NCBI GenBank assembly: GCA_043803225.1
Contig: JAZDKF010000026.1
Span: forward strand, 2,250-66,249
DNA length: 64,000 nucleotides
Direction of reading: 5' to 3'
Source: Candidatus Beckwithbacteria bacterium
GTDB lineage: Bacteria > Patescibacteriota > Microgenomatia > UBA1400 > CG1-02-47-37
In this document: positions 2,757-48,782 of the stretch, piece after piece
How the letters are laid out: each line of letters begins with the position of its first letter
Position numbering within the stretch: position 1 is the stretch's first letter
Translations under genes and position numbers: made by a program
The notes under the pieces: generated by a model
Seen by the model: the letters and a program-made list of their open reading frames with translations, nothing else
Told to the model about the DNA's origin: nothing
The model's database searches: none

Positions 2757-4757
2757 TTACTCCTTTAAACTCGTAATAACTTTTTTGGCAATAAATTCTG
2801 CACTTAATTTAAAGGCTTTCATTAATTCCCAAGATCCGCCGCTTTCCCCAAACTTATCCTCAACTCCGATCATTGCCATCTTTACCGGCTTGGATAAACA
2901 GGCTGTCATAATTACCCCGGCAACCAAATTACCCAAACCGCCTTTTTGGTGTTCTTCGGCGGTGACAATCAACTTGGTCTCTTGACCTGCTTTAATAATC
3001 GTCTTTTTATCTAAGGGTTTCAGTGTGTGTAAATTTATTACTCTGACTTTTATCTTAAACTCAGTTTCTAAAATCCAGGCCGCCCGCATTGCTTCGGCCA
3101 ATTCCGGTCCGCAGCTGATCAGAGTTACCTTTTCCTGCTCATTTTTATATTTAGACCCTAAAATTGTCTCAAACGCGTCAATAAAATTATTCTTAATTCC
3201 TCTAAACCTAATAACATTTGCCTGACCAAATACTAGAGGTGTTTTTTTGGTCGTTAAAATCGGCGTTGCTTCTCTGGCAAATCTGATATATTTTGGGCCC
3301 TTAACTTTAAACAGTAAATATTCTGTCAGTCTTTCTGTCTCAATTGAATCACACGGAACCGCTAAATTCATGTTCGGTAAAATTCCGACTACGGAAAACT
3401 CTTCTAAAGATTGGTGCGTCGCTCCGTCGGCACCGACCGAAACCCCGCCGTGCGCCCCGCCGAACATCACATTCAAATTGCCATAACAAATCGAAGTTCT
3501 CATCTGGTCAGCGTTTCTTTGCGAACAAAATACGCCATAAGTACCCAATACCGGCAATTTCCCTTCTCTGGCCAGTCCTCCGGCCACGGTAGTGGCGCTT
3601 TGTTCCGCAATTCCCATCGACAACCAGCGGTTTTTTCGGTCTTCAAATCCCTCATGAAATTTTGAAATCTGGATTGAATCAGAAATATCCAGACCCAAAC
3701 ACACTACTCGTTTATCGCCGCCTCGCTTCGCCAATGTTTTGCCAAAACCAAATCGGGTTGGTTCCATCTGCACTTTCATGGTTTCTCCATTGTTCCACCA
3801 ATAATCCCGTTTAAATTTCGGAACGCTTTTATTAATTAAAACCGTGGCCTTTTCCTGAAATTTTCTGGCTTTTTCTTTAAATTCAATCGGGTTTAACTCC
3901 TTATTAAGCTTTAATTCTTTCAGAGACTTTTCCAGTTCTTCATCATTTGGAGCCTTACCGTGCCACCCGGCCACATTTTCCATAAAGCTAACCCCTTTGC
4001 CTTTTATCGTTCTAAATACAATTGCCGCTGGTTTACCCTGAACTGCTTTTGCTTTTTCAAATGTGGTTAAAATCTCTTCCAGGTTATGGCCGTTAACCTT
4101 AAACACTTTAAATCCAAAACTAGTTAATTTTTCATTTAACCAGTCCAGTTTCATGACTGTTTCGGTATTGCCGTCAATCTGCAAATAATTTCTATCGATG
4201 CAAACAATTAAGTTATCTAAATTATAATGAGCCGCCTCCATCGCTGCTTCCCACATAGAACCTTCGGCCCACTCACCATCGCCGGTAATTGTATAAATTT
4301 TATGAGTTTGCTTGTTTAATTTAGCTGCTAAAGCCATTCCTACGGCTAAACTCAATCCTTGACCCAGTGATCCGGTGGAAACTTCCACACCCTTAACTTT
4401 TAACCAATGGGGATGACCTTGAAACTTAGAGCCAAATTTTCTAAGTAGTGCCGTCTCTTCAATCGGAAAGTATCCGGACATTCCTAAAGCGGTATACAAA
4501 GCCGGAGCCTTATGGCCGGCTGACCAAACCACTCTATCTCTATTTTTCCAATTAGGGTCTTTCGGATCGTGATGGAGCACAGACAAATATAAGGCTGCTG
4601 CAACATCCATCACTGACAATGATCCGCCGGAATGCCCGCTGCCGGCACAACTTATAGCTGTAAGACAATAACCCCTCATTCTGTTAGCTGTTTCCTTAAG
4701 TTTGCCTATCGAATACCGAACTCTTACCTTACCTGTCTTTGAATCTATGATTGCCAT
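2757..4757 (-). CDS. tkt: transketolase
   Basis: 666 aa. The N-terminal thiamine-diphosphate-binding motif GHSGGSLSVMDV is present, and the protein is full-length with the pyrimidine-binding and C-terminal domains. Confidence 0.9.
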   Translation of the reverse strand: MAIIDSKTGKVRVRYSIGKLKETANRMRGYCLTAISCAGSGHSGGSLSVMDVAAALYLSVLHHDPKDPNWKNRDRVVWSAGHKAPALYTALGMSGYFPIEETALLRKFGSKFQGHPHWLKVKGVEVSTGSLGQGLSLAVGMALAAKLNKQTHKIYTITGDGEWAEGSMWEAAMEAAHYNLDNLIVCIDRNYLQIDGNTETVMKLDWLNEKLTSFGFKVFKVNGHNLEEILTTFEKAKAVQGKPAAIVFRTIKGKGVSFMENVAGWHGKAPNDEELEKSLKELKLNKELNPIEFKEKARKFQEKATVLINKSVPKFKRDYWWNNGETMKVQMEPTRFGFGKTLAKRGGDKRVVCLGLDISDSIQISKFHEGFEDRKNRWLSMGIAEQSATTVAGGLAREGKLPVLGTYGVFCSQRNADQMRTSICYGNLNVMFGGAHGGVSVGADGATHQSLEEFSVVGILPNMNLAVPCDSIETERLTEYLLFKVKGPKYIRFAREATPILTTKKTPLVFGQANVIRFRGIKNNFIDAFETILGSKYKNEQEKVTLISCGPELAEAMRAAWILETEFKIKVRVINLHTLKPLDKKTIIKAGQETKLIVTAEEHQKGGLGNLVAGVIMTACLSKPVKMAMIGVEDKFGESGGSWELMKAFKLSAEFIAKKVITSLKE

Positions 4758-4815
4758 AGTTTAAGGATTTTTCCAGTGTCTCATTAAACCCTTATTCTGT
4801 CAAGCAATAATTTTG

Positions 4816-4888
4816 AGCGGGAAACGGGATTTGAACCCGCGACCTTCTCGTTGGCAACGAGACGCTCTACCAGCTGAGCTACTCCCGC
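4816..4888 (-). tRNA. tRNA-Gly(GCC)
   Basis: 73 nt. Acceptor GCGGGAG/UUCCCGC, D-arm GCUC..GAGC, anticodon stem UCUCG/CGAGA with loop UUGCCAA, T-arm GCGGG-UUCAAAU-CCCGU, discriminator U. Confidence 0.9.
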
Positions 4889-4898
4889 ACTACTGCAT

Positions 4899-5147
4899 TC
4901 AATTTCTGTATTTTACCAAATTTTCTTTTTTTATTCTTGACCAACCTTTAATCTCTCTTTCTCTCTTTAAAGCTTCAATTCTTGAATTAAAGCTTTCTTT
5001 ATGAACTAGCTGAACCGGTAGCTTCCCTCTAATTGACTTCGCTCCTCTCTTTCCAAAATTATGTTCCCAGATTCTTTTCTCAATATTAGCTGTACTCCCT
5101 GTATAAAAAGTTCCATCCTTACATTGAACAATATAAACATAAAACAT
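4899..5147 (-). CDS. GIY-YIG nuclease family protein (UPF0213/YhbQ-like)
   Basis: 82 aa, beginning MFYVYIVQCKDGTFYTGSTANIEKRIWEHN, which is a GIY-YIG motif. It sits inside the tRNA array. Confidence 0.75.
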   Translation of the reverse strand: MFYVYIVQCKDGTFYTGSTANIEKRIWEHNFGKRGAKSIRGKLPVQLVHKESFNSRIEALKREREIKGWSRIKKENLVKYRN

Positions 5148-5213
5148 TTTGTGTGCCTTTACTTCTCAAACCAATGTGCCCCGCACTGAGGCCGACGTAA
5201 CCGTCGGCCGAAG

Positions 5214-5286
5214 TGGCAAGGATTGGAATCGGACCAATATCTGACGTTTTTCAGACGCCCGCCGTGACCAACTTGGCTACCTTGCC
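5214..5286 (-). tRNA. tRNA-Phe(GAA)
   Basis: 73 nt. Acceptor GGCAAGG/CCUUGCC, anticodon stem GGCGU/ACGUC with loop CUGAAAA, T-arm AUUGG-UCCGAUU-CCAAU, discriminator A. Confidence 0.85.
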
Positions 5287-5315
5287 GTTTGTGCTCCGCA
5301 CCGAGCGAAGCGAGG

Positions 5316-5388
5316 TGACCGCTGCAGGGATTGAACCTGCGACCCTTGCGATGTAAACGCAATGCTCTACCAGCTGAGCTAAGCGGTC
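5316..5388 (-). tRNA. tRNA-Val(UAC)
   Basis: 73 nt. Acceptor GACCGCU/AGCGGUC, D-arm GCUC-AGCUGGUA-GAGC, anticodon stem UUGCG/CGCAA with loop UUUACAU, T-arm GCAGG-UUCAAUC-CCUGC. Confidence 0.9.
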
Positions 5389-5428
5389 TAATTTTAACAC
5401 AAATGTGCTTGCACTGAACGCAGCGAAG

Positions 5429-5510
5429 TGCCGGGAACAGGACTTGAACCTGCACGCCTTTCGGCATACGCACCTCAAGCGTACGTGTATACCAGTTTCA
5501 CCATCCCGGC
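5429..5510 (-). tRNA. tRNA-Leu(GAG)
   Basis: 82-nt type II tRNA. Acceptor GCCGGGA/UCCCGGC, anticodon stem UACGC/GCGUA with loop UUGAGGU, long variable arm, T-arm GCAGG-UUCAAGU-CCUGU. Confidence 0.88.
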
Positions 5511-8773: not shown

Positions 8774-9898
8774 ATGTCAAGTAGTATAGTTATAGGTAAA
8801 ATAATTGCTTTAATTTTAAAAATTTTTTCTTCCCGCGGCGGAACTGCCCTCCCGGGTTTAATTGCTTTAAAACTTAACCCAAGTTTAATTAATCAAATTA
8901 TTAAGAAAAACCAACTTTTTTCTATTATCATAACCGGTACCAATGGTAAAACCACTACCTGCCGGCTTTTAGGAAATATTCTTAAAACATCTGGTTTAAA
9001 CTATATTCATAATCGTAGTGGTTCAAATCTGCTTCGGGGTATTGCCTCTACTTTAATTAATCAAACTAATATTCAGGGAAAACTTAAAGCCAAATATGCA
9101 ATCTGGGAGGTTGACGAAGCTGCTGTCAAAACTGCTATTTCTCAAGTTCAGCCTAAAATTGTTCTTTTTAATAATTTAAGCCGGGATCAGTTAGACCGCT
9201 ATGGCGAACTTGATGCTGTAATTCACTCCTGGCAGTCTGGCATCAACTCTTTACCTTCAACCAGCCTGGTTTTCATTAATCAGCTTGATCCTCGTTTGAA
9301 AAATCTTCGAGCCAAAAACTTAAAACCTTTTGGCCAAACCCTTAATTCTGGTCAGTTCTTTCAGGCTAATCTTCAAGCCGCAACTGCAATCGCTCAAGTT
9401 CTTAAAATCAACTCAAATAAAATTTCTAAAGCTGTTAAAGATTTTAAACCGGCTTTTGGTCGGGGAGAAGTCTTTACTTTTAGAAAACGCCAGATTCGAC
9501 TGACTCTGGTTAAAAATCCTTCAGGGTTTAATGCGGTTCTTGATTGGCTAAGAAATCAAAACTATTTAGACCAGCCTCTTCTCCTAATCTTAAACGATTG
9601 TCTGGCAGACGGCACTGATGTTTCCTGGATCTGGGATGTTAATCTAGAAATTCTCCAAAACCGTTCTCAGCCAATTATTATTGCCGGCCTTCGCTCTTTT
9701 GATCTGGCTTTAAGGCTTAAATATGCCGGCGTTAATCCAAATCTGCTTCAAGTTCAACCTTCAATTTCCCATGCCTGGAATGACTTGATCGCTTTAAAAG
9801 GCCCAGTTGCAAACATCCTGCCTACCTATACTGCCATGCTCGAGTTAAGGCATTTTTTAAGTCGCCAAAAAATTATTCATCCCAGCTGGCAGGATTAA
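8774..9898 (+). CDS. murT: lipid II isoglutaminyl synthase subunit MurT (Mur-ligase family)
   Basis: Contains the Mur ligase P-loop ITGTNGKTTT and a C-terminal DUF1727-like region. It is immediately followed by gatD. Confidence 0.75.
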   Translation: MSSSIVIGKIIALILKIFSSRGGTALPGLIALKLNPSLINQIIKKNQLFSIIITGTNGKTTTCRLLGNILKTSGLNYIHNRSGSNLLRGIASTLINQTNIQGKLKAKYAIWEVDEAAVKTAISQVQPKIVLFNNLSRDQLDRYGELDAVIHSWQSGINSLPSTSLVFINQLDPRLKNLRAKNLKPFGQTLNSGQFFQANLQAATAIAQVLKINSNKISKAVKDFKPAFGRGEVFTFRKRQIRLTLVKNPSGFNAVLDWLRNQNYLDQPLLLILNDCLADGTDVSWIWDVNLEILQNRSQPIIIAGLRSFDLALRLKYAGVNPNLLQVQPSISHAWNDLIALKGPVANILPTYTAMLELRHFLSRQKIIHPSWQD

Positions 9899-9899
9899 T

Positions 9900-10619
9900 A
9901 TGGAATTGATTTTAGCCCATCTTTATCCCAAATTAATGAATATCTACGGGGATCAAGGCAATGTCATTGCTCTAAAATATCGCTGCCAACAACGTCAAAT
10001 TAAACTGATAGTTAAACCAATTGAAATTAACACTTCTTTGCCTTCAGGCAGCTTTGATCTCTTGTTTGCCGGAGGCGGTCAGGATCAACAACAAGCCTTA
10101 ATCAGCCAAGATCTAATCTCTCGAAAAAAAGTTTTAACCCAAGCTTTAAATCACCAAATTCCCATGCTGACTATCTGCGGCAGTTACCAACTCTTTGGCG
10201 CATATTTTAAGCCTTTTAATGGTCCCAAACTTTTGGGTTTAAACTTATTTGATGCCTATACCCAAGCATCCAGAAATAGAAAAATTGGCAACATTATTGT
10301 TGATTCTAATTTTGGCAAGCTTGTTGGCTTTGAAAACCATTCAGGCAACACTTTTTTATCCGGTTCAACCAAACCACTGGGCCGGGTTATTAAAGGCTTT
10401 GGTAATAATGGCCAGGATAAAACCGAAGGGGCGATTAAACAAAATCTTTTCGGCTGTTATCTTCATGGCTCGCTGCTGCCAAAAAATCCGGTTTTTTGTG
10501 ATTTTTTAATTAAAACCGCGCTTGAAAACAAATACCAATCAGTTAAACTTGAAGCCTTGTCTAATGAATTGGAAATTCAGGCTCGCCAACAGGCTTATCC
10601 TCTGGTAAAATACTTGTAA
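9900..10619 (+). CDS. gatD: lipid II isoglutaminyl synthase glutaminase subunit GatD (CobB/CobQ-like GATase)
   Basis: N-terminus LYPKLMNIYGDQGNVIALKYR matches the GatD family. A catalytic Cys is present in the TICGSYQ context. Confidence 0.75.
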   Translation: MELILAHLYPKLMNIYGDQGNVIALKYRCQQRQIKLIVKPIEINTSLPSGSFDLLFAGGGQDQQQALISQDLISRKKVLTQALNHQIPMLTICGSYQLFGAYFKPFNGPKLLGLNLFDAYTQASRNRKIGNIIVDSNFGKLVGFENHSGNTFLSGSTKPLGRVIKGFGNNGQDKTEGAIKQNLFGCYLHGSLLPKNPVFCDFLIKTALENKYQSVKLEALSNELEIQARQQAYPLVKYL

Positions 10620-10742: not shown

Positions 10743-11858
10743 ATGTTAAATTTTTTAAAAAACTTAAACAACAACTTAAATTTATTTTCGGCTTTAGCCA
10801 AGAAGCTTAAATCACTGGTTGTCTGGCTGAAAAAAAGAAAGCTGTTTACCATATTTTTAATAATCGTAATTTTTAGCTTGTCTTTTTTCGGTTATAAAAA
10901 ATTTGGGCCCCATAATTTAAACGACCGGTATGAATTCGGTCAAGTTATCCGTCAGGATATCACCAAAACCATTTCTGCTTCTGGCAAAATCAAGTCTCAA
11001 ACTCAAGTTGATTTAAAATTTCAAACTTCCGGTCAGCTTGCCTGGATTGGAGTTAAAGAAGGCGATTATGTTAGAAAGTGGCAGGCGCTTGCCAGCCTGG
11101 ATCTTCGTCAGCTGCAAAAAACCTTGGAAAAATACTTGCTTGATTACTCTAAAGAAAGAAACGACTGGGATGAAGATAAATTAATTACTTATCGTGACAC
11201 GGTTATAACCGATACCTTAAAACGTTTAATCGAAAAAAACCAGTTTGACCTGCAAAAAGCTGTTTTGGATGTTGAACTTCAAGACATCTCCTTAAAGTAT
11301 GCCACTTTAATTACTCCAATCAGCGGTATTGTTACCCATATCGATATCCCGGTTGCTGGCATCAACATTACTCCTGCAACCGCGGTTTTTACTGTCGCTG
11401 ACCCGGATCAGCTTGTTTTTGAAACAATTATTGACGAAGTTGACATTGGCCAGCTGACAGTTGGCCAAACTGCTCAACTGGTATTAGATGCGTATCCGAA
11501 CGAAACCATCAATCTGACTCTTGATTCAATTGATTTTACTAGTACCTTGGACACCTCTGGCAGTACTGTCTTTTTAGTAAAATTTAATCTCCTAAACACC
11601 CCTGAAAAAAAGTTCAAACTCGGAATGAATGGAGAAGTCACTATTACGGTTGCTCAAAAATCAGCTGTTTTAGCTATCCCTTTAACCGCGGTGATTGAAG
11701 ACGACCAAACCACAGTTCAAATGATTAACAATAAACAAATCATCAGTCAACCAATTACTTTAGGCATAACCAATGATGAATTTGTTGAAGTTACTTCTGG
11801 ATTAACTGAAAATCAAACCATTATTATCGGTCAAAAAGCTAAAAAATCTTTTGAATGA
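10743..11858 (+). CDS. HlyD/MacA-family periplasmic adaptor (efflux membrane fusion protein)
   Basis: N-terminal TM segment, coiled-coil regions and a beta-barrel domain. Its stop overlaps the next gene. Confidence 0.75.
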   Translation: MLNFLKNLNNNLNLFSALAKKLKSLVVWLKKRKLFTIFLIIVIFSLSFFGYKKFGPHNLNDRYEFGQVIRQDITKTISASGKIKSQTQVDLKFQTSGQLAWIGVKEGDYVRKWQALASLDLRQLQKTLEKYLLDYSKERNDWDEDKLITYRDTVITDTLKRLIEKNQFDLQKAVLDVELQDISLKYATLITPISGIVTHIDIPVAGINITPATAVFTVADPDQLVFETIIDEVDIGQLTVGQTAQLVLDAYPNETINLTLDSIDFTSTLDTSGSTVFLVKFNLLNTPEKKFKLGMNGEVTITVAQKSAVLAIPLTAVIEDDQTTVQMINNKQIISQPITLGITNDEFVEVTSGLTENQTIIIGQKAKKSFE

Positions 11859-37408: not shown

Positions 37409-37821
37409 TGTTGGCTATAAACACAAAAATCTTGATTAGGATTATCAGTCTCCCATTCTCCATCGCTTTCCAGATCAATACAAAACTGATACGCATCACT
37501 GGTCATACTAACAGCAAGATAATCAGATCCGTCTTTCGGATCTACCGGTATCTCTTGCATCGTCACTGTTGTTCCATCAACACAAGTTAGAACTTCACCC
37601 CAGGTTATATCCGGATACTCATTATCTATCGCATAGCATTCTTCCATGGCCTTTTGGACCGCTTTCATATCAGCTTGCCTGCGCGAATCCCGGCCCCTTT
37701 TTTGCGCCGTTGAAAAACTAACCGATCCTATTCCCAGTAAAATCCCAATAATTGAAATAGTTACCAATAACTCTAATAAAGTAAAACCTTTAGATACCAC
37801 TGCCATATTGTTTCTCCCCAT
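37405..37821 (-). CDS. type IV pilin / GspG-like pseudopilin
   Basis: Leader ...SKG|FTLLELLVTISIIGILLGI followed by KRGRDSRRQADMKAVQKAMEEC. Confidence 0.8.
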   Translation of the reverse strand: MGRNNMAVVSKGFTLLELLVTISIIGILLGIGSVSFSTAQKRGRDSRRQADMKAVQKAMEECYAIDNEYPDITWGEVLTCVDGTTVTMQEIPVDPKDGSDYLAVSMTSDAYQFCIDLESDGEWETDNPNQDFCVYSQQ

Positions 37822-38555
37822 AATTTTGCCGCTAACATCGCCAGTAATAAAAATGGTCCAAAAGCGATTCTGTCCTTAAGCTTTTTCTTGCCTCTTATTA
37901 TTAGTATCACACCCACAACTGCACCTGTCAAGAAAGCAATCAAGTAGGCTACCAGAATTTTCGGCCAACCTAAAACTAGGCCTAAAAGCACTGCCAGTTT
38001 TATATCCCCAAAACCCATGCCTTTTTTCTTAGTCAATAAATATAAAGAGTAAATAAAGATAAACGAACCTAAAGCCGTCCAAATCACTTGCCATTGTCCG
38101 GAGAAGGGGAGTCGAAGCAAGGCCAAACCAATTAAGGGATATAAAATCTCATCTGGAATTAACATATACTTTAAATCAAAAATAATAATTCCTATTGATC
38201 CGGAAAATAAAATCAGCCAGTAAATCAGCAAAGCCAGACTGTAAAACCCCTCCCAGCTGTTAAAAAAATTAAAGTTCACTGACAACAGCCAATAAACCCA
38301 GACAAATTCAATTCCTATCAACAATTCTGTTAACGGGTATTCAACCGGAATCTTGCGCTGGCACTTACGGCATCTGCCTTTTAAAATTAAAAATGACAGT
38401 AAAGGAATATTGTCATACCAGCCAATTTTTGCCTGGCACTGATCACAGTGAGACCGGCCGGTGATAAACGATTCTCCCTTTTTAATTCGATAAACCATTA
38501 CGTTTAGAAAACTTCCCACCGCCAAACCTAAAACAAACAAAATCAGATACGTCAT
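37773..38555 (-). CDS. pilD: prepilin peptidase (A24 family, PilD)
   Basis: The cytoplasmic Cys cluster CDQCQAKI...CRKCQRKI follows an eight-TM protein body. Confidence 0.85.
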   Translation of the reverse strand: MTYLILFVLGLAVGSFLNVMVYRIKKGESFITGRSHCDQCQAKIGWYDNIPLLSFLILKGRCRKCQRKIPVEYPLTELLIGIEFVWVYWLLSVNFNFFNSWEGFYSLALLIYWLILFSGSIGIIIFDLKYMLIPDEILYPLIGLALLRLPFSGQWQVIWTALGSFIFIYSLYLLTKKKGMGFGDIKLAVLLGLVLGWPKILVAYLIAFLTGAVVGVILIIRGKKKLKDRIAFGPFLLLAMLAAKLWGETIWQWYLKVLLY

Positions 38556-38573
38556 TCTCTAAATATATCATAT

Positions 38574-38595
38574 CTTCCACCTCTAAGGTGGAAAG
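38574..38595. repeat. REP-like palindromic element, copy 1 (cttccacc-tctaa-ggtggaag)
   Basis: Near-perfect hairpin 45 nt upstream of the RAYT gene start. The same core sequence recurs at 39147-39169. Confidence 0.7.
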
Positions 38596-38618
38596 TTGAT
38601 ATGCTATGATTAAGTATT

Positions 38619-39281
38619 ATGCCCGGTAGACTAATTCCCTTAGTTACCAATGAAATCTATCATGTTTTTAATAAAGGTATTTCTTCTCAAATAGTATTTG
38701 CTGATAAATCTGATTATCAAAGAGCAGAGGATTCTCTTCTTTATTACAAGCACGCCAAACCGCCAATCAAATATTCACGATTATTTTCTATACATAAAGA
38801 CTCTCGAAACGACTTGATTAAACAGTTGGAAAAAGAAAAAAATAATTTAGTTGATCTAATTACATATTGCTTTATGCCAAATCATTTTCATCTTTTATTA
38901 AAACAACTTGTTGATAATGGTATTTCACAATATTTAAGTAATTATTCTAATAGTTATACCCGTTATTTTAATACCAAGCATGAAAGATTAGGACCATTAT
39001 TCCAAGGCAAATTTAAAGCTGTCCATATTGAAAACAATGAACAATTACTGCACGTTTCCAGATACATCCATCTTAATCCCTACTCTTCTTCAATTATCGG
39101 TTCAACCGAACAATTAAAAACTTATCCATACTCATCCTTATATAAACTTTCCACCTCTAAGGTGGAAAGTAATATTATAATAAATCAATTTAAAAATATT
39201 AACGAATACTATAAATTTATAATCGACCAAGCCGATTACCAAAAACAACTCCAAAATATTAAAAAACTTACCTTGGAATAA
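38619..39281 (+). mobile_element. REP-associated tyrosine transposase (RAYT; IS200/IS605 Y1 HUH transposase family)
   Basis: HUH motif CFMPNHFHLLL and the catalytic-Tyr region SRYIHLNPY (YxxxNP). It is flanked by, and partly contains, copies of a 22-23-nt palindrome, and it interrupts the T4P gene cluster. Confidence 0.75.
39147..39169. repeat. REP-like palindromic element, copy 2 (ctttccacc-tctaa-ggtggaaag, 9-bp perfect stem)
   Basis: The same palindrome as at 38574-38595, here inside the 3' part of the RAYT ORF where it encodes ...KLSTSKVES.... Confidence 0.7.
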
Positions 39282-39285
39282 CTAA

Positions 39286-39309
39286 AAACCCCTCGTTGCC
39301 GAGGGGTTT
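39286..39309. terminator. bidirectional intrinsic terminator between RAYT (+) and a pilin gene (-)
   Basis: aaaaa-CCCCTCG-ttgc-CGAGGGG-ttt: a 7-bp GC-rich stem with an A-tract 5' and a T-tract 3'. Confidence 0.6.
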
Positions 39310-39330
39310 AAACTAACCTTTAAATCAAAT

Positions 39331-40041
39331 TTACTCTTCAGGAATACAGACAAAAGCCGCTAAGGTAACATCAGTCCAATCCGGTGTTTCTGTACTCGGC
39401 CAAGGAGCAATTGCCGAAGGGATAGCATCTTCACCTGTTCCTACCCAAGTCAATTGTTTCAGTTTGGTTGTATCTGCACCAGAGGTTGGATCAGTATCAT
39501 CAAAAGTATCTCGGGTGGCTTTTGATTGCGGCATAAAACAAATACTCACTGAAGGATCACCTTCTAATTTCACTACAAACAACTTATCTGCCGTCGGTAA
39601 AGTCGGAAAGACTTTAAAGTAATTTCTTTTGGCAAACTGAGACTTTAATTCCTGAGTCTCAATCAAATATCCATAGTGATTCACTCCGCCGGCATCTACT
39701 TCAGCTAAACACCCGGAAGCATCGCTATTTTCAGCTATGCCTGTAGTTACGTCACCACCGACTGCAGTACACACCCCAACTCCAACCATACGGGCATTAC
39801 CGTAAAAAGCCGCATCGGTACTCTCAGCATAATCAGCATAGTTATTCCAGGGAAACTTTAAATTTGAAGCAAAATAACGGTCTAAGGCGCTGATCAACTG
39901 CGACGCATCCGCCCGCTTGCTCGCATCTCTGGCTTTATTAATCTGTTCAATCGGGTTAATTGCTGATAGTACGGCTACTGCTAAAATTCCAATCAAGGTA
40001 ATTACCACTAACAACTCAATTAAGGTAAAGCCTTTCTTCAT
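39331..40041 (-). CDS. type IV pilin (large pilin subunit, 236 aa; candidate major pilin)
   Basis: The start was trimmed to the ATG at 40041, giving leader MKKG|FTLIELLVVITLIGILAVAVL. The ORF-track N-terminal extension lacks a prepilin leader. Confidence 0.8.
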   Translation of the reverse strand: MKKGFTLIELLVVITLIGILAVAVLSAINPIEQINKARDASKRADASQLISALDRYFASNLKFPWNNYADYAESTDAAFYGNARMVGVGVCTAVGGDVTTGIAENSDASGCLAEVDAGGVNHYGYLIETQELKSQFAKRNYFKVFPTLPTADKLFVVKLEGDPSVSICFMPQSKATRDTFDDTDPTSGADTTKLKQLTWVGTGEDAIPSAIAPWPSTETPDWTDVTLAAFVCIPEE

Positions 40042-40054
40042 AAACACACCTCCG

Positions 40055-41260
40055 TTAAAACTGGCTGGTAAGATTGTAAATGGGCAGGATAATGGCAATT
40101 ACCAGAAATGCCACACCTATACCTAGTACTATCATCATAAGTGGCTCAATTGCCGTTGTCAAGCCTTTGATTGCCTGTTCTGACTCGGTCTCAAAATAGC
40201 CGGAAACATTGAACAATACTTCGTCAACTTTCCCGGTTTCTTCGCCCACGGCAATCATTTGGGCAACAATCGGTGGAAAGTGTTCAAACTGTCCAATTGC
40301 CGCGGCTAAAGGAATGCCTTTTTCCACATCCTTGGCCGCTTGCTTAATTGACTTGCTGAATAAATAATTATCCGCTGCTCCAGCCACAATCTCCAAAGCT
40401 TCAACAATCGAAATCCCTGACTCAACTAATAAAGCCAGTGTCCGGGTAATCTCAGTTAAAATTATCTTGGTTTTTAACTTACCGATTATCGGCATCTTTA
40501 AAATATACTGGTCATACTTGGCTCTTCCCCCAGGCGTCTTCTGCCACTGCCAAAAACTATAACTACCCCCGATTAGCAATAATAGCTGAAAATACCAACT
40601 CTTTACCATAAAGTTAGATAAACCAATTAATATCTTCGTCATTCCCGGCAGATCAGCTCCAAATTCGTCATAAAGCGAAGTAATTTTCGGGATTACAAAT
40701 ACCATCATTATTACTGCCACGGCAATCATGGCTACGCTGATTATCAGCGGATAAATTAAAGCATTCTTGGTTTTGGCCCTGAACTCTGCTTGTTTTTCCA
40801 TATTCGTGGCTAACCTTATTAGCACCTTTTCTAACACCCCCGCCGCTTCGCCCGATTGAATTAAGGATAAATAAACTTTATTAAAAACCTGCTCATGCTT
40901 GCTTAAAGCCTTAAAAAAAGAATTGCCCCCTTCCACTTCTCTTAATACCTCATCAACGATTACTCCCATACCCACACCTGATTGGTACTTTAAAATTGCT
41001 AAAGCCTGAGCCAAGGGTAAACCCGCATTCACCATCGTCGCCAGCTGTCGGGTAAAATGAACCACATGGTCATTTTTAATCTTTTTAAAACTATTCAGCC
41101 ACTTCATCCAACCCGGGACCACTTCAATCTTTTCCAAATCAATAATAAATAATCCTTTCTGCCTTAAAATACTCTGGGCTTGGATTAAATTAACCGCCTC
41201 CACTATTCCTTTTAATTTTCGGTTTTCTTTATTAGTCGCGCAGTAATTATACTTTTCCAT
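40055..41260 (-). CDS. pilC: type IV pilus inner-membrane platform protein PilC (GspF family)
   Basis: 401 aa with two GspF repeats and polytopic TM segments. Confidence 0.85.
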   Translation of the reverse strand: MEKYNYCATNKENRKLKGIVEAVNLIQAQSILRQKGLFIIDLEKIEVVPGWMKWLNSFKKIKNDHVVHFTRQLATMVNAGLPLAQALAILKYQSGVGMGVIVDEVLREVEGGNSFFKALSKHEQVFNKVYLSLIQSGEAAGVLEKVLIRLATNMEKQAEFRAKTKNALIYPLIISVAMIAVAVIMMVFVIPKITSLYDEFGADLPGMTKILIGLSNFMVKSWYFQLLLLIGGSYSFWQWQKTPGGRAKYDQYILKMPIIGKLKTKIILTEITRTLALLVESGISIVEALEIVAGAADNYLFSKSIKQAAKDVEKGIPLAAAIGQFEHFPPIVAQMIAVGEETGKVDEVLFNVSGYFETESEQAIKGLTTAIEPLMMIVLGIGVAFLVIAIILPIYNLTSQF

Positions 41261-41265
41261 AAACT

Positions 41266-42321
41266 TTATCTGCTCTTAATTAAGCGGAGTAAAGAATTAG
41301 GATCCAAACAGTATTCCTGAGCTGTCTTAAAATCAATCTTCCCCGCTATAATCTGCTTTGCCAAATCTTGTTCCAAAGAATGCATCCCTACATCACCTGA
41401 AGTCTGAATCACATTATTTAATAAATGTGACTTACCTTCCCGGATACTGGTCTTAACCGCATTGGTCCCTAGTAAAACTTCGGTCGCCGCCACCCGGCCA
41501 CCGCCGATTGCCGGAACCAGTCTCTGAGCCATTACCACTGACAAAGTGCTGGACAACTGTATCCGAATCTGGCCTTGCTGATGTTCTGGAAACACATCCA
41601 CAATCCGGTCAACAGTTTGGGCCGCACTATTAGTGTGTAGTGTCGCTAGCACCAGATGGCCGGTTTCCGCCACGGTTAATGCTGCCGCGATTGTCTCATA
41701 ATCCCGCATTTCTCCGACTAAAACTACATCCGGGTCTTCTCTTAAAGCTGATCGTAGCGCCACTGTCCAGGAATGAGTATCGCCATGCATCTCTCTTTGG
41801 GAAATAATACTTTTAATCGGTTTATAAATATACTCGATTGGATCTTCAATCGTTAAAATATGGTCTGCCCGGTTCTGGTTAATTTGGTTAATTATTGCCG
41901 CTAAACTGGTGCTCTTTCCATGTCCGGTCGGACCGGTCACTAACACTAGTCCTTGCTTTAACTCCGCCACTTCCAAGCAAATTTTAGGTAAGTTTAACTC
42001 CTCAATTGATCTGATTTTATCGCTGATTAACCGTAAAGCCGCTGCCATGCTGCCCTGTTGAAAATAAACATTTACCCTGAACCGGCCCAGTTCGCCAAAA
42101 GCCACGGAAAAATCCAGCTCTTTATTAACCAAAAACTTGTCCTTTTGCTGTGGAGTCAATAATGGAAAAATCAAATCCTTAGCTTTCGACTCTGTTAAAA
42201 TCTCTTTGTCCACTGGTTTTAACTCACCGTCAATCCTTAAGTGCGGCGGTGATCCGACTGTCAAATGCAAGTCAGAAGCTTGAGCTTCAATTGTTTTTTT
42301 AAGCAATTCTTTAATATCCAT
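41266..42321 (-). CDS. pilT: type IV pilus retraction ATPase PilT
   Basis: 351 aa. Walker A motif GPTGHGKST and a PilT-family Asp box/His box. The size is typical of PilT. Confidence 0.8.
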   Translation of the reverse strand: MDIKELLKKTIEAQASDLHLTVGSPPHLRIDGELKPVDKEILTESKAKDLIFPLLTPQQKDKFLVNKELDFSVAFGELGRFRVNVYFQQGSMAAALRLISDKIRSIEELNLPKICLEVAELKQGLVLVTGPTGHGKSTSLAAIINQINQNRADHILTIEDPIEYIYKPIKSIISQREMHGDTHSWTVALRSALREDPDVVLVGEMRDYETIAAALTVAETGHLVLATLHTNSAAQTVDRIVDVFPEHQQGQIRIQLSSTLSVVMAQRLVPAIGGGRVAATEVLLGTNAVKTSIREGKSHLLNNVIQTSGDVGMHSLEQDLAKQIIAGKIDFKTAQEYCLDPNSLLRLIKSR

Positions 42322-42325
42322 AAAC

Positions 42326-44077
42326 TTAACTTTCTGCTACTCTAAGGACTTCCTCTAAAGTAGTCAATCCTTCTAATGTTTTAATATAACCGTCTTGCTT
42401 CATATCAATCATACCATTAGCTTTAGCTTCAGCTTCGATCTTCGAAGAAGGGGAGTGCTCTAAAATCAGCCGCCCGATCTTTTCTGTTACTGGCAAAACC
42501 TCAAAAATTCCGATTCTGCCTGAATAACCGGTACCGTTACACTCCGAACACTTTTTGCCTCGGTAAAACAAAATTTTATTAAGCTTCCGACTGCTCATAA
42601 AACTAGTAAGCAAAGGTCCTAATATTTTTTTAACATCGGCCAACACTGACTCAACTGGCTCATAAGACTCCTTACAATGTTCACAGACTTTTCGGCAGAC
42701 CCGCTGGCCGACTACTGAAGTCATTGACGATGCCAATAAAAACGGTTCCATGTCCATATCTAACAGCCGGGGTAATGCTCCTGAAGCACTATTCGTATGT
42801 AAAGTTGAAAAAACTAAGTGACCGGTTAACGACGCTTGAATCGCCAACTCAGCTGTTTCTTTGTCTCGAATCTCACCCACCATGATAATGTTTGGATCCT
42901 GACGTAAAAATGATCTTAAACCCGAAGAAAAAGTTAAGCCTGCTTGGGGATTAATCTGCACCTGAGTAATTCCGGCAATTTGATACTCCACCGGATCTTC
43001 CAAAGTCATAATATTTACCCTTGGGGTATTAATCATGGTTAAAAGTGAATAAAGCGTGGTAGTTTTGCCTGATCCGGTCGGACCGGTAACTAAAACAATC
43101 CCGTGCGGTACCCGAATGGCAGCTTGCAAATTAGTTAATGCCCGGCCCCTAAGCCCCAACTCTGACAGTTCTGGTACATGAATTGCTTTCTGCAACAACC
43201 GCATCACTATTTTCTCCCCATGAACCGAGGGTAGAGAAGACACCCTTAAATCAACTTCTTCTTCATTAGCCTTGAAACTAAACCTGCCATCCTGCGGGAT
43301 TCGTTTTTCATCAATCTTCATATGCGACAAAATCTTAATCCGGCTAATCACACTGTCATGAACACTGCGCGGTAAAATCAGTTTCTCGTATAAAATTCCG
43401 TCAATCCTGTACCGAACTCGAGTCTTTTCTTCTAAAGGTTCAATGTGGACATCACTGGCTTTGGCTTTAATTGCAAACTCAAGAATTGTTGATACGATCT
43501 TAGCCACTGGCGCTTCTCTGATCACCCCGCCTGCCAGATCATCAACCACCATTTTTTTAGCCTGGATTACATTAGTCTCTTTCAAAGCCTCAGTTACTTC
43601 AGAAGATAAGCTTTGAGAATACCTTTCTCTTATCTGTTTTATTAACTTGCTGGCCTCACCTAAAAATGGCTGCAGCCTCATTCCTGTCTTTGTCTCAATA
43701 AACTCCAAAGCCTGTAAATCAATCGGATTGGCCATGACAATTGATAAAGTCTTTTTCTCCCGATCCAAAGCAAAAGGCAGCACTAGGTATTTTTCCGCGA
43801 CTGCTTCAGGCAGTAAATTCAAAGCTTCAGGTGAAGTACTGGCCGCCGACACATCCATATAAGGTACTTTTAAAATCTCCGCCTTTGCCTGGGCAATCAC
43901 TGCCTCTGGCACCAAGTTATGCTTGACTAACAACTCTTCTGCCGATAAAGACGTCCCTAATAACTCACTCGAGATCCTTTCATGATCTTCCCGATTAATC
44001 TTTTCTAATTTAAGCAATAAATCCAAAAGCTGGCTGTCTTGGGCAGGCATATTAAAATTATTATATACTACTAACAA
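42326..44077 (-). CDS. pilB: type IV pilus assembly ATPase PilB (GspE family)
   Basis: 583 aa. Has an N-terminal GSPII domain, Walker A motif GPTGSGKTTT, and a tetracysteine motif CEHC...CSEC. Confidence 0.88.
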   Translation of the reverse strand: MLVVYNNFNMPAQDSQLLDLLLKLEKINREDHERISSELLGTSLSAEELLVKHNLVPEAVIAQAKAEILKVPYMDVSAASTSPEALNLLPEAVAEKYLVLPFALDREKKTLSIVMANPIDLQALEFIETKTGMRLQPFLGEASKLIKQIRERYSQSLSSEVTEALKETNVIQAKKMVVDDLAGGVIREAPVAKIVSTILEFAIKAKASDVHIEPLEEKTRVRYRIDGILYEKLILPRSVHDSVISRIKILSHMKIDEKRIPQDGRFSFKANEEEVDLRVSSLPSVHGEKIVMRLLQKAIHVPELSELGLRGRALTNLQAAIRVPHGIVLVTGPTGSGKTTTLYSLLTMINTPRVNIMTLEDPVEYQIAGITQVQINPQAGLTFSSGLRSFLRQDPNIIMVGEIRDKETAELAIQASLTGHLVFSTLHTNSASGALPRLLDMDMEPFLLASSMTSVVGQRVCRKVCEHCKESYEPVESVLADVKKILGPLLTSFMSSRKLNKILFYRGKKCSECNGTGYSGRIGIFEVLPVTEKIGRLILEHSPSSKIEAEAKANGMIDMKQDGYIKTLEGLTTLEEVLRVAES

Positions 44078-44760
44078 TGCTTCACGCCATCCTTATTACC
44101 AGTCAGGATCAAAATCAAGCTCTAAAACTGGCTCAAACTCTAAGTAACAATAAGCTTGAGCCGCAGCCAGATTTATTAATTTTAACTTCCTCCACTTCTA
44201 TTGGCATTGATCAGGTTAAATCTCTGGAAAAATTCTTAAACCAAAAACCTTACCAAAATCCCCAAAAAATTGTCCTGATACCTCAGGCCTCAATCTTAAC
44301 CTTACCCGCCCAGCAAGCCTTGCTAAAAACTCTGGAAGAACCGCCGGCCCACTCCCTGATTATTTTAATTGCTCCTCATCAAAAAACTCTCTTGCCCACG
44401 ATTATTTCCCGTTGTGAACTTCACTCAATTCAAGTCAGTTCTGACCTAACTTTGCAGTTTATTCAAACTCAAAAGGCTATCTATAATCATCTAATCAAAG
44501 CTAATTTAGGCCAAAGAATTAATTTTATTGCCGATTACGCCAGCACTAAAATTATCGCTATTGAGTTTTGCCAGCAACAACTTAAATTTCTTCGCCAGCA
44601 ACTGCTGGTAAAACCAGATAAAAATCTCCTTTCAATCCTTTCCGATTTTAACCTTGCAATTAACCGTCTAAACCATAATCTTAATCCCAAACTTTGCTTA
44701 GAACAGCTCGTCTTCCACTATCCTAATTCTAATAAAACTGATAAAATAGATTCAGGTTGA
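44077..44760 (+). CDS. holB: DNA polymerase III delta' subunit-like clamp-loader protein (short)
   Basis: Clamp-loader signature QALLKTLEEPP. At 227 aa it is shorter than canonical HolB. Confidence 0.6.
   Translation: MLHAILITSQDQNQALKLAQTLSNNKLEPQPDLLILTSSTSIGIDQVKSLEKFLNQKPYQNPQKIVLIPQASILTLPAQQALLKTLEEPPAHSLIILIAPHQKTLLPTIISRCELHSIQVSSDLTLQFIQTQKAIYNHLIKANLGQRINFIADYASTKIIAIEFCQQQLKFLRQQLLVKPDKNLLSILSDFNLAINRLNHNLNPKLCLEQLVFHYPNSNKTDKIDSG

Positions 44761-48782
<4,022 letters not shown>

Follow-up and report, generated by a model that had tools for sequence, protein, structure and literature searches.

The systems closest to the one described here are those that pair a RAYT (TnpA-REP) protein with REP sequences, the so-called REPtrons, reportedly set out by Nunvar in 2010, Bertels and Rainey in 2011, Ton-Hoang in 2012 and Messing in 2012. 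Work on these RAYT/REP systems has so far dealt mainly with Proteobacteria and Cyanobacteria. The Rickettsia palindromic elements, 100-150 bp in length, offer a further point of reference; no transposase is known to be associated with them. Canonical REPs carry a 5' GT[AG]G tag, and atypical, untagged structures have been accepted for subclasses 2.6 and 3 (PMC6006769). Subclass 2.1 of the TnpA-Y1 proteins corresponds to the TIRYT family and to Bertels Group 1 (Quentin et al. 2018, PMC6006769; Di Nocera et al. 2013, PMC3733652), and among the flanking repeats of TIRYT genes are self-complementary ones that form part of small repeat families (PMC3733652). In other taxa, REPs are also found in frame, both inside tnpA-REP genes (subclass 2.4) and inside other genes (PMC6006769, PMC3733652). 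The locus examined here lies in a 64-kb stretch of Candidatus Beckwithbacteria DNA, the whole of which we call the window. It is probably best explained as a Y1/HUH protein of the RAYT/TIRYT kind with its cognate hairpins, a REPtron-like module that entered the spacer between pilin and pilD in an ancestor and has since been inherited vertically.

The Y1 gene (38619..39281, + strand) is read directly as an open reading frame for a 220-aa protein homologous to class-2 Y1/HUH single-strand DNA endonucleases and transposases, and it bears the CFMPNHFHLLL and YIHLNP motifs that an earlier note, made from the sequence, had recognized. The product is identical to NCBI MFH0943156.1, labelled 'transposase' in a Candidatus Beckwithbacteria MAG. 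The search with PF01797 proposed in that note bore out its assignment, with Y1_Tnp scoring 35.7 bits (cut-off 23) over residues 65-151; the same domain was matched in 27 of 27 aligned family members. Among 6905 homologues retrieved with the window protein, the best are full-length (220-225 aa), and this 220-225-aa family is large and occurs throughout the CPR (Microgenomates-type) bacteria. Within the HUH motif N88-H89-F90-H91 (NHFH; codons at 38880..38891, +), residues N88, H89 and H91 are invariant across the 27-sequence alignment, as is the whole of Y149 to P154 (39063..39080, +), the catalytic-tyrosine motif with the class-2 signature Y---NP. The Y149 codon occupies 39063-39065, and the AlphaFold model (pLDDT 88.8, pTM 0.85; one of five models confident) places this residue in a helix spanning positions 140-156. 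Because phmmer found no match to the window protein in the PDB, and the family profile gave marginal matches there to solved Y1 enzymes (E = 0.014-0.07), we relied on fold comparison. Foldseek ranked 4er8_A first in the PDB (E = 1.9e-7, TM 0.68), the structure of E. coli TnpA-REP in complex with a REP hairpin; the TnpA transposases of ISDra2 and IS608 came next (E about 1e-4). Motifs and modelled fold together support placement of the protein in the Y1/HUH superfamily, in class 2 by its Y---NP signature. It thereby shares with RAYT/TnpA-REP proteins the Y1/HUH core, the class-2 motif and a best structural match to 4ER8. Unlike them, it falls below the cut-off of the NCBIfam equivalog NF047646 REP_Tyr_transpos (44.1 against 80 bits), and it is 13% identical to the E. 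coli protein of 4ER8 in the structural alignment.

A further departure from RAYT/TnpA-REP proteins is the extra conserved C-terminal tail of the window family, about 45 residues long. In the window protein its conserved part comprises residues 185-220 (39171..39278, +), predicted to form three helices at 185-188, 194-202 and 205-219, a block with pLDDT 78-92 in the AlphaFold model. Residues F191, K192, Y197, F200, D203, A205, D206, Y207, Q208, L211, I214 and K215 are kept family-wide in the alignment, and a Pfam search of the 27 members at E up to 5 matched Y1_Tnp alone, with no domain in the tail. The open reading frame runs on for 111 nt beyond the internal hairpin described below, into this conserved sequence. 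The suspicion that the C-terminus might be a recent read-through or remnant does not hold: the 36 residues following the palindrome are conserved and modelled as high-confidence helices, and on both counts the tail is to be taken as a genuine part of the protein rather than read-through.

By its motifs the window protein appears closest to subclass 2.1 (TIRYT). In a comparison by eye with Table 1 of PMC6006769, the subclass pattern of NH[YF]H, FQ and Y[IV]HLNP finds its counterparts in NHFH at 88-91, in F128-Q129 within GPLFQGKFK, and in YIHLNP. Subclass 2.1 proteins likewise possess an added C-terminal domain (median length 238 aa, against 220 aa here), and Bertels Group 1, with about 12 flanking-repeat occurrences per replicon, shares the low genomic repeat frequency of the present system. 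The likeness has its limits: subclass 2.1 was reported without REP-like sequences beside the gene (PMC6006769), its C-terminal domain resembles helix-turn-helix Pfams (Bac_DnaA_C, HTH_23, HTH_28), none of which was detected in the window family, and the TIRYT inverted-repeat motif GGGGWSAS is absent here, the flanks being TTCCACC-type hairpins. CPR bacteria go unmentioned in the subclass 2.1/TIRYT study.

The repeat itself is exact. The 21-mer TTCCACCTCTAAGGTGGAAAG has precisely two + strand occurrences, at 38575-38595 and 39149-39169, within a direct repeat of 22 nt (38575-38596 and 39149-39170) with a spacing of 574 nt; the same palindrome had indeed been noticed earlier both upstream of the gene and inside its 3' coding region. 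No third copy exists in the 64-kb window, even when 3 mismatches are allowed, and any match at all arose in 0 of 100 shuffles. The true hairpin has an 8-bp stem and a 3-nt loop, TTCCACCT-CTA-AGGTGGAA, and no other 8-bp hairpin recurs in the window. The upstream copy (38575..38596; the perfect 8-bp stem and loop followed by AGT) sits in the 63-nt spacer between the divergent pilD and Y1 genes, beginning 44-45 nt before the Y1 ATG. The internal copy (39146..39170; ACTTTCCACCT-CTA-AGGTGGAAAGT) has an 11-bp stem and lies in frame; together with the preceding lysine codon it encodes KLSTSKVES (codons 176-184), in the variable loop that joins the catalytic core to the C-terminal helices, and the AlphaFold model renders residues 177-184 as coil at the surface. 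Folded as single-stranded DNA, the two copies reach -9.9 kcal/mol (z -6.3) and -11.3 kcal/mol (z about -6.4), respectively. Rfam recognizes no family at either palindrome, its matches in the window being 9 tRNAs only. As a separate observation, the CCACCTC and AAGGTGG segments of the hairpin resemble anti-Shine-Dalgarno and Shine-Dalgarno sequences; the upstream copy is unlikely to serve as a ribosome-binding site, because its end lies 23 nt before the ATG, too far for that function.

Set beside the REPs of RAYT systems, the window hairpin differs in lacking GTAG and in having a near-perfect stem of 8-11 bp with a 3-nt loop. Its 5' flanks are ATATC and AAACT, with no GTAG/CGTC tag at the hairpin foot. 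Elsewhere the 5' flanks are mostly CTG, CTA or an 'arm' sequence (consensus aaatacCcaAGGTGgCg.a.cta); in non-Beckwith genomes this arm accompanies 62 of 86 copies, and it is absent from both copies in the window. The internal copy recalls subclass 2.4, in which a cognate palindrome is also found in frame in the gene of the enzyme itself, in a peripheral variable region and without disruption. The REPs of that subclass are long or 'double-foot' elements tagged with GT[AG]G, unlike the hairpin here, and the window copy falls after the Y motif and before the C-terminal tail.

The gene positions agree with the placement proposed earlier, with the Y1 gene on the strand opposite to that of pilD and of the pilin, pilC, pilT and pilB genes between which it stands. 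On one side lies the divergent pilD (37773..38555, -), whose 100%-identical match is annotated as prepilin peptidase and carries Pfam PF01478 and PF06750; on the other lies the convergent pilin gene (39331..40098, -), the first of the pilin, pilC, pilT and pilB genes that extend over 39331-44077 (-). The pilin translation contains KKGFTLIELLVV, its listed start is probably too far upstream, and the equivalent genes of orthologous loci match PF07963 N_methyl. A candidate extended -10 element for the Y1 gene, TGCTATGAT (38602..38610, +), directly follows the upstream palindrome and precedes the ATG by 8 nt. A consensus promoter scan found no + strand promoter at 38602-38610; orthologues carry TGCTATAAT at this site, including the locus L080, which is without the upstream palindrome. 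On the minus strand, a promoter-like site for pilD (38567..38594, -), TTTCCA and TATGAT separated by a 16-nt spacer, is a consensus match only (9/12), and the -35 hexamer of this putative promoter falls inside the upstream palindrome. Between the converging Y1 and pilin genes is a GC-rich hairpin, AAACCCCTCG-TTGC-CGAGGGGTTT (39286..39309; 10-bp stem, -11.4 kcal/mol), which had been read as a bidirectional terminator. The hairpin is real; as to direction, the terminator scan scores the minus (pilin) strand only, and the plus-strand T-run is weak (GGGGTTTAAAC). In L080 and in another orthologous locus, L087, the place of this GC-rich hairpin, immediately past the stop codon, is taken by a copy of the REP-like palindrome.

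The order pilD, Y1, pilin, pilC, pilT, pilB is kept in seven distinct orthologous loci, in which the Y1 proteins are 70-84% identical, with dN/dS of 0.05-0.15 and dS ranging from 0.7 to saturation. Such constancy of order and of selection contradicts the idea of a recent insertion. As with RAYT/TnpA-REP genes, the pattern is that of a single-copy, vertically inherited gene under purifying selection, in the style of a housekeeping gene, and within the window the Y1 gene is indeed present once. The proposal that the gene divided the pilus locus is made plausible by a synteny comparison with relatives whose pilin-pilD loci are empty (L147 and L148), one strand carrying both pilin and pilD there, at a distance of 23 or 121 nt. 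Arrival of the Y1 gene thus appears to have split a pilin-pilD operon in one sub-clade of Beckwithbacteria. No close homologue of the Y1 protein was found on plasmids or phages, the best being at most 35% identical.

In the Beckwith clade, the hairpin sites are upstream of the gene, internal to it and/or just after its stop codon. An upstream-type copy stands 19-45 nt before the ATG in most of the orthologous loci; none is found in L080, where the Y1 gene is nonetheless intact. The internal hairpin occupies the same codon position in 7 of 7 distinct orthologues and is nucleotide-identical in six of them, being loop-flipped in the seventh. Elsewhere in the same orthologues, nucleotide invariance extends to 18 of 109 codons for invariant residues. 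The hairpin is constrained at the DNA level. The orientation of the loop relative to the gene (CTA or TAG) is mixed across lineages, with no clear rule.

Beyond the Y1 loci, the 19-nt core recurs in 86 exact copies on 76 stretches of 24 assemblies, where about 4 would be expected by chance (our own estimate, over 596 Gb); this excess, together with the shuffle control given above, excludes a chance origin of the repeat. The 24 assemblies, judged to be CPR genomes by gene content or record title, hold 1-15 exact copies each, and the three titled Beckwithbacteria hold 1-4. These numbers are low beside those of classical REP groups, with flanking 16-mers at typically 57 and 140 per replicon. In metagenomes, the 25-mer was found in 67 exact copies on 56 contigs, of which about 23 accompany Y1 genes and about 44 are spread over roughly 25 further, distinct sites. 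As the genome and metagenome scans were confined to exact matches, the invariance apparent in them is inflated; unbiased evidence comes from the orthologue comparison and from by-catch counts in 542 kb of related loci, which contained 86 exact copies, none with one mismatch and 3 with two. Around 38 of 88 copies fall within reading frames of 80 aa or more, among them AroA, MurC and the AroK-AroE linker, and in relatives the hairpin often lies in frame within housekeeping genes, a presence in unrelated housekeeping proteins that it shares with intragenic REPs and with the Rickettsia palindromic elements. Identity of the core across deeply diverged lineages sets it apart from the REPs of RAYT systems. 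Two features are unusual: a core that scarcely changes between lineages even though synonymous sites have saturated, and in-frame copies in housekeeping genes. Conveyance by phage or plasmid as a reason for this cross-lineage identity was considered and is unsupported: the hairpin core had no match in IMG/VR, and mobile homologues of the protein do not exceed the identity stated above.

The association between repeat and enzyme also extends beyond the orthologues. Among homologues at 47-57% identity, the Y1 gene lies between two copies of the core, 754-781 nt apart, and homologues at or above 47% identity share the TTCCACC core. More distant proteins have other repeats: a paralogue in L080 (33% identity) is flanked on both sides by a different palindrome, CCTGCAGGGT-cca-ACCCTGCAGG, and the homologues of L027 (44%), L049 (37%) and L075 (40%) have other flanking repeats again. 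In this small sample, each Y1 subfamily has its own repeat family. Bracketing of the gene by a short palindrome with further copies strewn across related genomes, and a separate flanking repeat for each more distant homologue, are both traits of RAYT/TnpA-REP systems, and they support the palindrome as a REP-like repeat cognate to the Y1 gene. Of the earlier claim of a RAYT with its cognate REPs, borne out for the most part, what stands is that the core is dispersed in relatives and flanks the orthologous genes; what does not is a dispersed set within the window, and the failed equivalog cut-off and missing GTAG likewise weigh against the classical label. Since the window holds just two gene-associated copies in 64 kb, the dispersed repeat population is demonstrated for relatives only.

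An explanation that dispenses with the enzyme makes the palindrome a regulatory or structural signal of the host (an operator, for instance, a hairpin stabilizing or terminating transcripts, or a site for a nucleoid protein), to which the Y1 gene is adjacent by chance. Between lineages whose Y1 proteins share only about 50% identity the core hardly varies, as is more usual for a site bound by protein than for a repeat in decay; many copies classed as intergenic with a crude ORF criterion are situated where genes diverge (promoter regions) or converge (terminator regions); promoter-like elements overlap the upstream copy; and in L080 and L087 a copy has taken the place of the terminator hairpin. 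The copies in AroA, MurC and the AroK-AroE linker would nonetheless be odd for transcription signals, the Y1 gene is bracketed by copies in several distant lineages and by different repeats where its homologues are more distant, and the number per assembly is too small for a global signal of the kind of a DNA uptake sequence. We consider this explanation improbable. A role as DNA uptake sequence in particular, an idea arising from the pilus context, was rejected on density. Such sequences occur at roughly one per kb.

A broader scheme, to which we would grant a similarly small chance, regards hairpin and Y1 protein as an ancient partnership spanning one entire CPR radiation, in which the enzyme might maintain the hairpins letter-perfect wherever they stand, housekeeping proteins and its own gene included, by correction or re-copying in place of ordinary selection, the upstream and internal copies serving self-control through autoregulation or excision of the 574-nt segment. 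Self-control might also be sufficient by itself to keep the hairpins, the protein binding the hairpin in DNA or mRNA to repress its own gene, or excising the 574-nt segment that encodes the catalytic core. An internal copy whose nucleotides stay the same in six of seven orthologues, although synonymous divergence is saturated, would suit this, as would the direct arrangement of the two copies, whose loops point the same way within any one genome (L089 has both flipped), and the contact of the upstream copy with the likely -10 element. It seems quite unlikely, for the gene of L080 is intact without an upstream copy, copies in other genes are equally invariant, so that no gene-specific role is needed, and the agreement in loop orientation comes from a very small number of genomes. 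Recent transposition of an autonomous IS200/IS605-type element into the pilus cluster, the left and right ends of the element being formed by the two hairpins, is already largely refuted and hardly credible: it would account for the Y1_Tnp domain, for two like hairpins on the same strand bracketing most of the gene 574 nt apart, and for the empty pilin-pilD junction of relatives, but the second hairpin is within an ORF whose next 36 residues are conserved family-wide, the motif is Y---NP rather than the Y---Q of IS200, the protein has 220 aa against the core-only length of about 150 aa, and the gene, with no adjacent tnpB, no second copy in the window and no close plasmid or phage homologue, has kept a fixed chromosomal position through seven diverged loci at the low dN/dS given above.

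Returning to a REPtron-like module as the likely explanation, the following course of events can be envisaged. The Y1 gene and its hairpin would have entered the short pilin-pilD spacer in the ancestor of a Beckwithbacteria sub-clade and then been passed on vertically under strong purifying selection, with one hairpin copy lodged in what may be the shared promoter region of pilD and Y1, a second in frame in a predicted surface loop of the enzyme and, in some orthologues, a third immediately past the stop codon. If it works as E. coli TnpA-REP and IS608 TnpA do, the protein may bind the hairpin extruded on single-stranded DNA; recognition of subterminal hairpins on single-stranded DNA by the IS200/IS605 enzymes (IS608, ISDra2), which have the same Y1/HUH fold, is the mechanistic model borrowed here. 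Cleavage beside the hairpin would then proceed through Tyr149, with a metal held by H89 and H91, and rejoining of strands could copy or move the hairpin to new sites. Only sites that tolerate a hairpin would retain one, whether between genes or in protein loops that it enters in frame. We only infer the catalytic activity, the site of cleavage, mobilization by the window protein and a regulatory role of the upstream hairpin. Half-site duplications, examined as a possible footprint of cleavage, were 3.3-fold enriched (10 cases), too weak a signal to be adopted.

We regard the locus as a further instance of an already known type of system, whose description in this bacterial group we did not find in the literature; in the open-access literature, no paper linked RAYT/REP systems to CPR/Patescibacteria. 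It is a compact case, in which uncultured, ultrasmall bacteria with genomes of about 1 Mb combine a 220-aa enzyme, a perfect hairpin of 19-25 nt and a handful of sites. That essential enzymes, and the gene of the nuclease itself, tolerate such a hairpin in frame, with a core remaining identical while synonymous sites saturate, makes the constancy of REPs more directly testable, as the outcome either of selection for binding or of enzyme-driven homogenization. For annotation, the bare label 'transposase' is misleading, as the gene behaves like a fixed, conserved host gene. A last observation concerns two of the loci with other flanking repeats: in L075 and L027, a copy of the window-type hairpin lies about 2 kb from the Y1 gene.

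The ORF at 38619-39281 (+) encodes a 220-aa protein that matches the Pfam Y1_Tnp profile at 35.7 bits (cut-off 23), as the earlier note had anticipated. Its HUH motif NHFH (residues 88-91, inside CFMPNHFHLLL) and tyrosine motif YIHLNP (residues 149-154) can be read directly from the sequence, and the HUH histidines, Y149 and IHLNP are invariant or nearly so in an alignment of 27 sequences. A homology search returned 6905 matches, the best 120 of which are all full-length, mostly 220-225 aa, with Beckwith-, Levy-, Gottesman- and Shapirobacteria as named sources; an identical protein, NCBI MFH0943156.1, is labelled 'transposase' in a Candidatus Beckwithbacteria MAG. By sequence alone, matches in the PDB were marginal. 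An AlphaFold model from the 27-sequence alignment (pLDDT 88.8, pTM 0.85; only one run in five was confident) found as its best match 4er8_A, the E. coli TnpA-REP with bound REP hairpin (E = 1.9e-7, TM 0.68), with the ISDra2 and IS608 transposases ranking lower. Quentin et al. 2018 (PMC6006769) place proteins with the Y---NP motif in class 2, the TnpA-REP-like proteins, and assign the set NH[YF]H, FQ and Y[IV]HLNP to subclass 2.1 (= TIRYT, Bertels Group 1). The window protein, with NHFH, FQ and YIHLNP, is a class-2 TnpA-Y1, and by motifs subclass 2.1/TIRYT is closest; the motifs are alike, whereas here the repeats are hairpins and a helix-turn-helix domain is not detectable. Its proposed identity as a REP-associated tyrosine transposase (RAYT) thus stands as regards class-2 motifs and fold, but not in the narrower sense of an equivalog of E. 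coli RayT, since the score with the NCBIfam equivalog model for these transposases, 44 bits, falls short of the required 80.

The palindrome associated with this gene is represented by a 21-mer, TTCCACCTCTAAGGTGGAAAG, present in two exact copies at 38575 and 39149, each on the + strand, and forming an exact direct repeat of 22 nt at a spacing of 574 nt. No third copy was found in the 64-kb window at up to three mismatches, and the 21-mer appeared in 0/100 shuffled sequences. Its structure, TTCCACCT-CTA-AGGTGGAA, comprises an 8-bp stem and a 3-nt loop, the stem being lengthened to 11 bp in the internal copy (39146-39170); folded as single-stranded DNA, the two copies reach -9.9 and -11.3 kcal/mol (z ~ -6.4), and no other 8-bp hairpin recurs in the window. 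Because ORF, motifs, repeat and hairpin were all re-found in place, the coordinates and description in the earlier note are correct. Its further suggestion, that the C-terminus is a recent read-through or remnant, is refuted. The internal copy lies 3' of the Y motif and encodes KLSTSKVES at the sole stretch where aligned family members differ in length as well as in sequence; 36 conserved residues follow in the 27 sequences, with a C-terminal series (F191, K192, Y197, F200, D203, A205, D206, Y207, Q208, L211, I214, K215) that is invariant or nearly so. In the model, residues 177-184 form a coil with short helices on either side, and the tail is helical at 185-188, 194-202 and 205-219.

Seven distinct orthologues (70-84% protein identity) all lie between pilD and pilin, pilC, pilT and pilB, opposite in orientation to the pil genes as in the window. 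The palindrome occupies the same codon position in 7/7, ~530 nt past the ATG, and most also possess the upstream copy. One locus, L080, is missing that copy and has one directly 3' of the stop codon, while L087 has three (upstream, internal and post-stop). These orthologues were recovered via the protein, not via the palindrome, and their codon comparison is without ascertainment bias. The nine palindrome codons (AAA CTT TCC ACC TCT AAG GTG GAA AGT) are identical in 6/7, the seventh having a loop-flipped palindrome and an upstream copy likewise flipped; outside the palindrome, only 18 of 109 invariant-residue codons are nucleotide-invariant. This shows a constraint or homogenisation that targets the palindrome DNA itself and not the encoded peptide.

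A scan for the exact 19-nt core in GTDB (one genome per species, 596 Gb, source genome not included) yielded 86 copies in 76 stretches of 24 assemblies, with 1 to 15 per assembly, against ~4 expected by chance in our estimate. The recurrence elsewhere predicted for a REP family is thereby borne out in relatives. Titles of core-bearing records name Levy-, Gottesman-, Beckwith-, Shapiro- and Blackburnbacteria, Paceibacterota and 'Patescibacteria group'. Gammaproteobacteria or Pseudomonadales appear in the titles of several 'binchicken' records that nevertheless contain the same CPR-type (Patescibacteria) loci (L002-L005, L013, L018, L026, L055 and others from CAZIZQ01, CAYZZG01, CAZYIC01 and CAYICL01); L055, for example, shows the Beckwith-type pilD-Y1 arrangement at 80% protein identity. 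The taxonomy of these titles looks wrong. In metagenomes, a 25-mer typical of the Beckwith clade gave 67 exact copies on 56 contigs. Of these, ~23 are at Y1 genes, and the remaining ~44 are spread over some 25 further distinct sites, several of which reappear in related genomes although their flanks have diverged.

In homologues at 47-57% identity, the whole gene lies between two palindrome copies 754-781 nt apart, the upstream one ~40-60 nt from the ATG and the other ~25-45 nt past the stop codon. Some orthologous loci, L080 (14018-14665, 5 kb away) and L081 (12623-13270), have an additional Y1 paralogue of 215 aa (33% identity) after the delta' gene, with a different palindrome, CCTGCAGGGT-cca-ACCCTGCAGG, on each side. 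This paralogue is missing in L082 and in the window, where the equivalent site is ~44760-44797, between the DNA polymerase III delta' gene and gyrB. Y1 homologues at 44%, 40% and 37% identity have further, other flanking repeats. On a handful of loci, each Y1 subfamily is therefore paired with its own repeat, the pattern by which REPtrons and TIRtrons are defined (PMC6006769, PMC3733652), and the palindrome is, by its genomic distribution, a dispersed and putatively cognate repeat in relatives.

Related loci totalling 542 kb contain 86 exact cores, three cores with two mismatches and no core with a single mismatch; the core scan returned exact matches only, and the invariance across genomes is partly due to such searching, by-catch copies in the same loci being 10 exact and 3 degenerate. 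Identity of the core across lineages whose enzymes are only ~50% identical is an uncommon feature. A more variable 5' 'arm' (consensus aaatacCcaAGGTGgCg.a.cta) adjoins 62/86 copies, outside the Beckwith clade, and none at the window copies; nine copies have an arm on each side and thus a longer hairpin. In L006, L004, L020, L024 and L003, a perfect TTGACA stands in the arm by the upstream palindrome, in the stretch 20-60 nt ahead of the Y1 start codon and ~16-17 nt before a -10-like box, and for this reason the repeat unit may supply the Y1 promoter outside the Beckwith clade.

At several sites the TTCCACC palindrome is immediately adjacent to members of another palindrome family, CCTACAAGG...CCTTGTAGG with its variants (L025 ~1165-1200, L038 ~3715-3745, L092, L111/L114, L112/L124/L130), an arrangement that suggests clusters of unlike REP-type elements and may be likened to the mosaic REP clusters of enterobacteria. 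Partial tandem duplications of the half-palindrome (TTCCACC or GGTGGAA) also adjoin full copies (L016 3083-3125; L020 4365-4410 and 5165-5215; L024 7222-7262; L059 7181-7225; L144 ~10951-11000). Half-sites are enriched 3.3-fold in the 45 nt around full copies compared with other positions (10 cases), and may have been left behind by cleavage and rejoining or by slippage during replication.

About 38 of 88 palindrome copies fall in ORFs of at least 80 aa, although such ORF-based genic/intergenic calls are crude, and genic copies use only four stop-free core frames, yielding STSKVE, STLEVE, FHLRGG or PPLRW. In-frame hosts, read from translations with no profile search, include AroA, GatB, CCA-adding enzyme, an AroK-AroE linker, MurC and an M24 peptidase; genes with an in-frame core lie at L001 5861-7018, L057 923-2077, L058 6593-7900, L026 5157-6677, L066 5329-6525, L021 401-1672 and L056 6143-6811. 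A glutamine amidotransferase-like protein (L019) shows a net gain of 9 aa over its window orthologue (9882-10592) and AroK-AroE a net gain of 5 aa over an orthologue without the element, while in AroA the element replaces a ~15-aa native loop with net length unchanged. Intragenic REPs have precedents, both in Di Nocera et al. 2013 (PMC3733652) and among the palindromic elements of Rickettsia; the large share of in-frame genic copies is uncommon.

An IS200/IS605 element was ruled out by the Y---NP motif (not Y---Q), fixed position and single copy, as well as by the lack of a tnpB gene and by a coding sequence that runs past the second hairpin. By motifs, predicted fold and genomic arrangement, the Y1 gene and palindrome would instead work like a REPtron, a Y1 gene bracketed by its own repeats. 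In a putative mechanism modelled on TnpA-REP and IS608 TnpA, the protein would recognise the hairpin in single-stranded DNA and cut beside it through Tyr149, with a metal held by H89 and H91; rejoining of strands would then duplicate or relocate the hairpin, which would survive only at sites where its insertion is tolerated. Among open-access papers we found none that connects REP or RAYT systems to CPR/Patescibacteria, and we rate this pair as a further member of a known REP/RAYT-type kind.

Pairwise comparisons of the orthologues gave dN/dS values of 0.05-0.15 and dS values that range from 0.67 up to saturation. In L147 (pilD 62% identical) pilin and pilD are co-directional and 23 nt apart, and in L148 (pilD 50% identical) the gap is 121 nt; neither junction contains a Y1 gene or the palindrome. 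Conserved loci, low dN/dS and empty junctions together argue that the module entered, or was lost from, a once-contiguous pilin-pilD junction long ago, with vertical inheritance since. The proposed splitting of the pilus cluster into two transcription units is supported by the empty junctions; a recent insertion is not. The core was not found in 2.9 million viral contigs, and the best plasmid and phage homologues of the Y1 protein are at most 35% identical. Contigs end 68 nt past the Y1 stop codon in L077, 149 nt past it in L089/L090, and ~230-300 nt upstream of the gene in L084/L086; strain-level pilin variation or the repeat itself are possible causes of breaks at Y1 or the adjacent pilin in independent assemblies.

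The upstream copy (38575-38596) occupies most of the 63-nt divergent region between pilD and Y1. It is followed by a TGCTATGAT element 8 nt before the Y1 ATG (TGCTATAAT in orthologues), and the -35 hexamer of a weak match to a pilD promoter falls within the palindrome; the Y1 gene might conceivably regulate itself, or transcription of pilD and the minor pilin genes might be affected. The GC-rich hairpin at 39286-39309, previously described as a bidirectional terminator, scores as one for the pilin gene, but on the Y1 side is without a good T-run. The pilin ORF as listed (39331-40098, -) has a TTG start and shares 44 nt with the end of pilC; as the prepilin leader MKKGFTLIELLVV begins 19 codons downstream, the true start is probably the ATG at ~40041. 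Elsewhere in the window, a GC-rich perfect hairpin at 5190-5209, GGCCGACG-TAAC-CGTCGGCC, lies just downstream of tRNA-Phe within a series of four tRNA genes on the minus strand (4815-5510), and is probably a terminator or processing signal.
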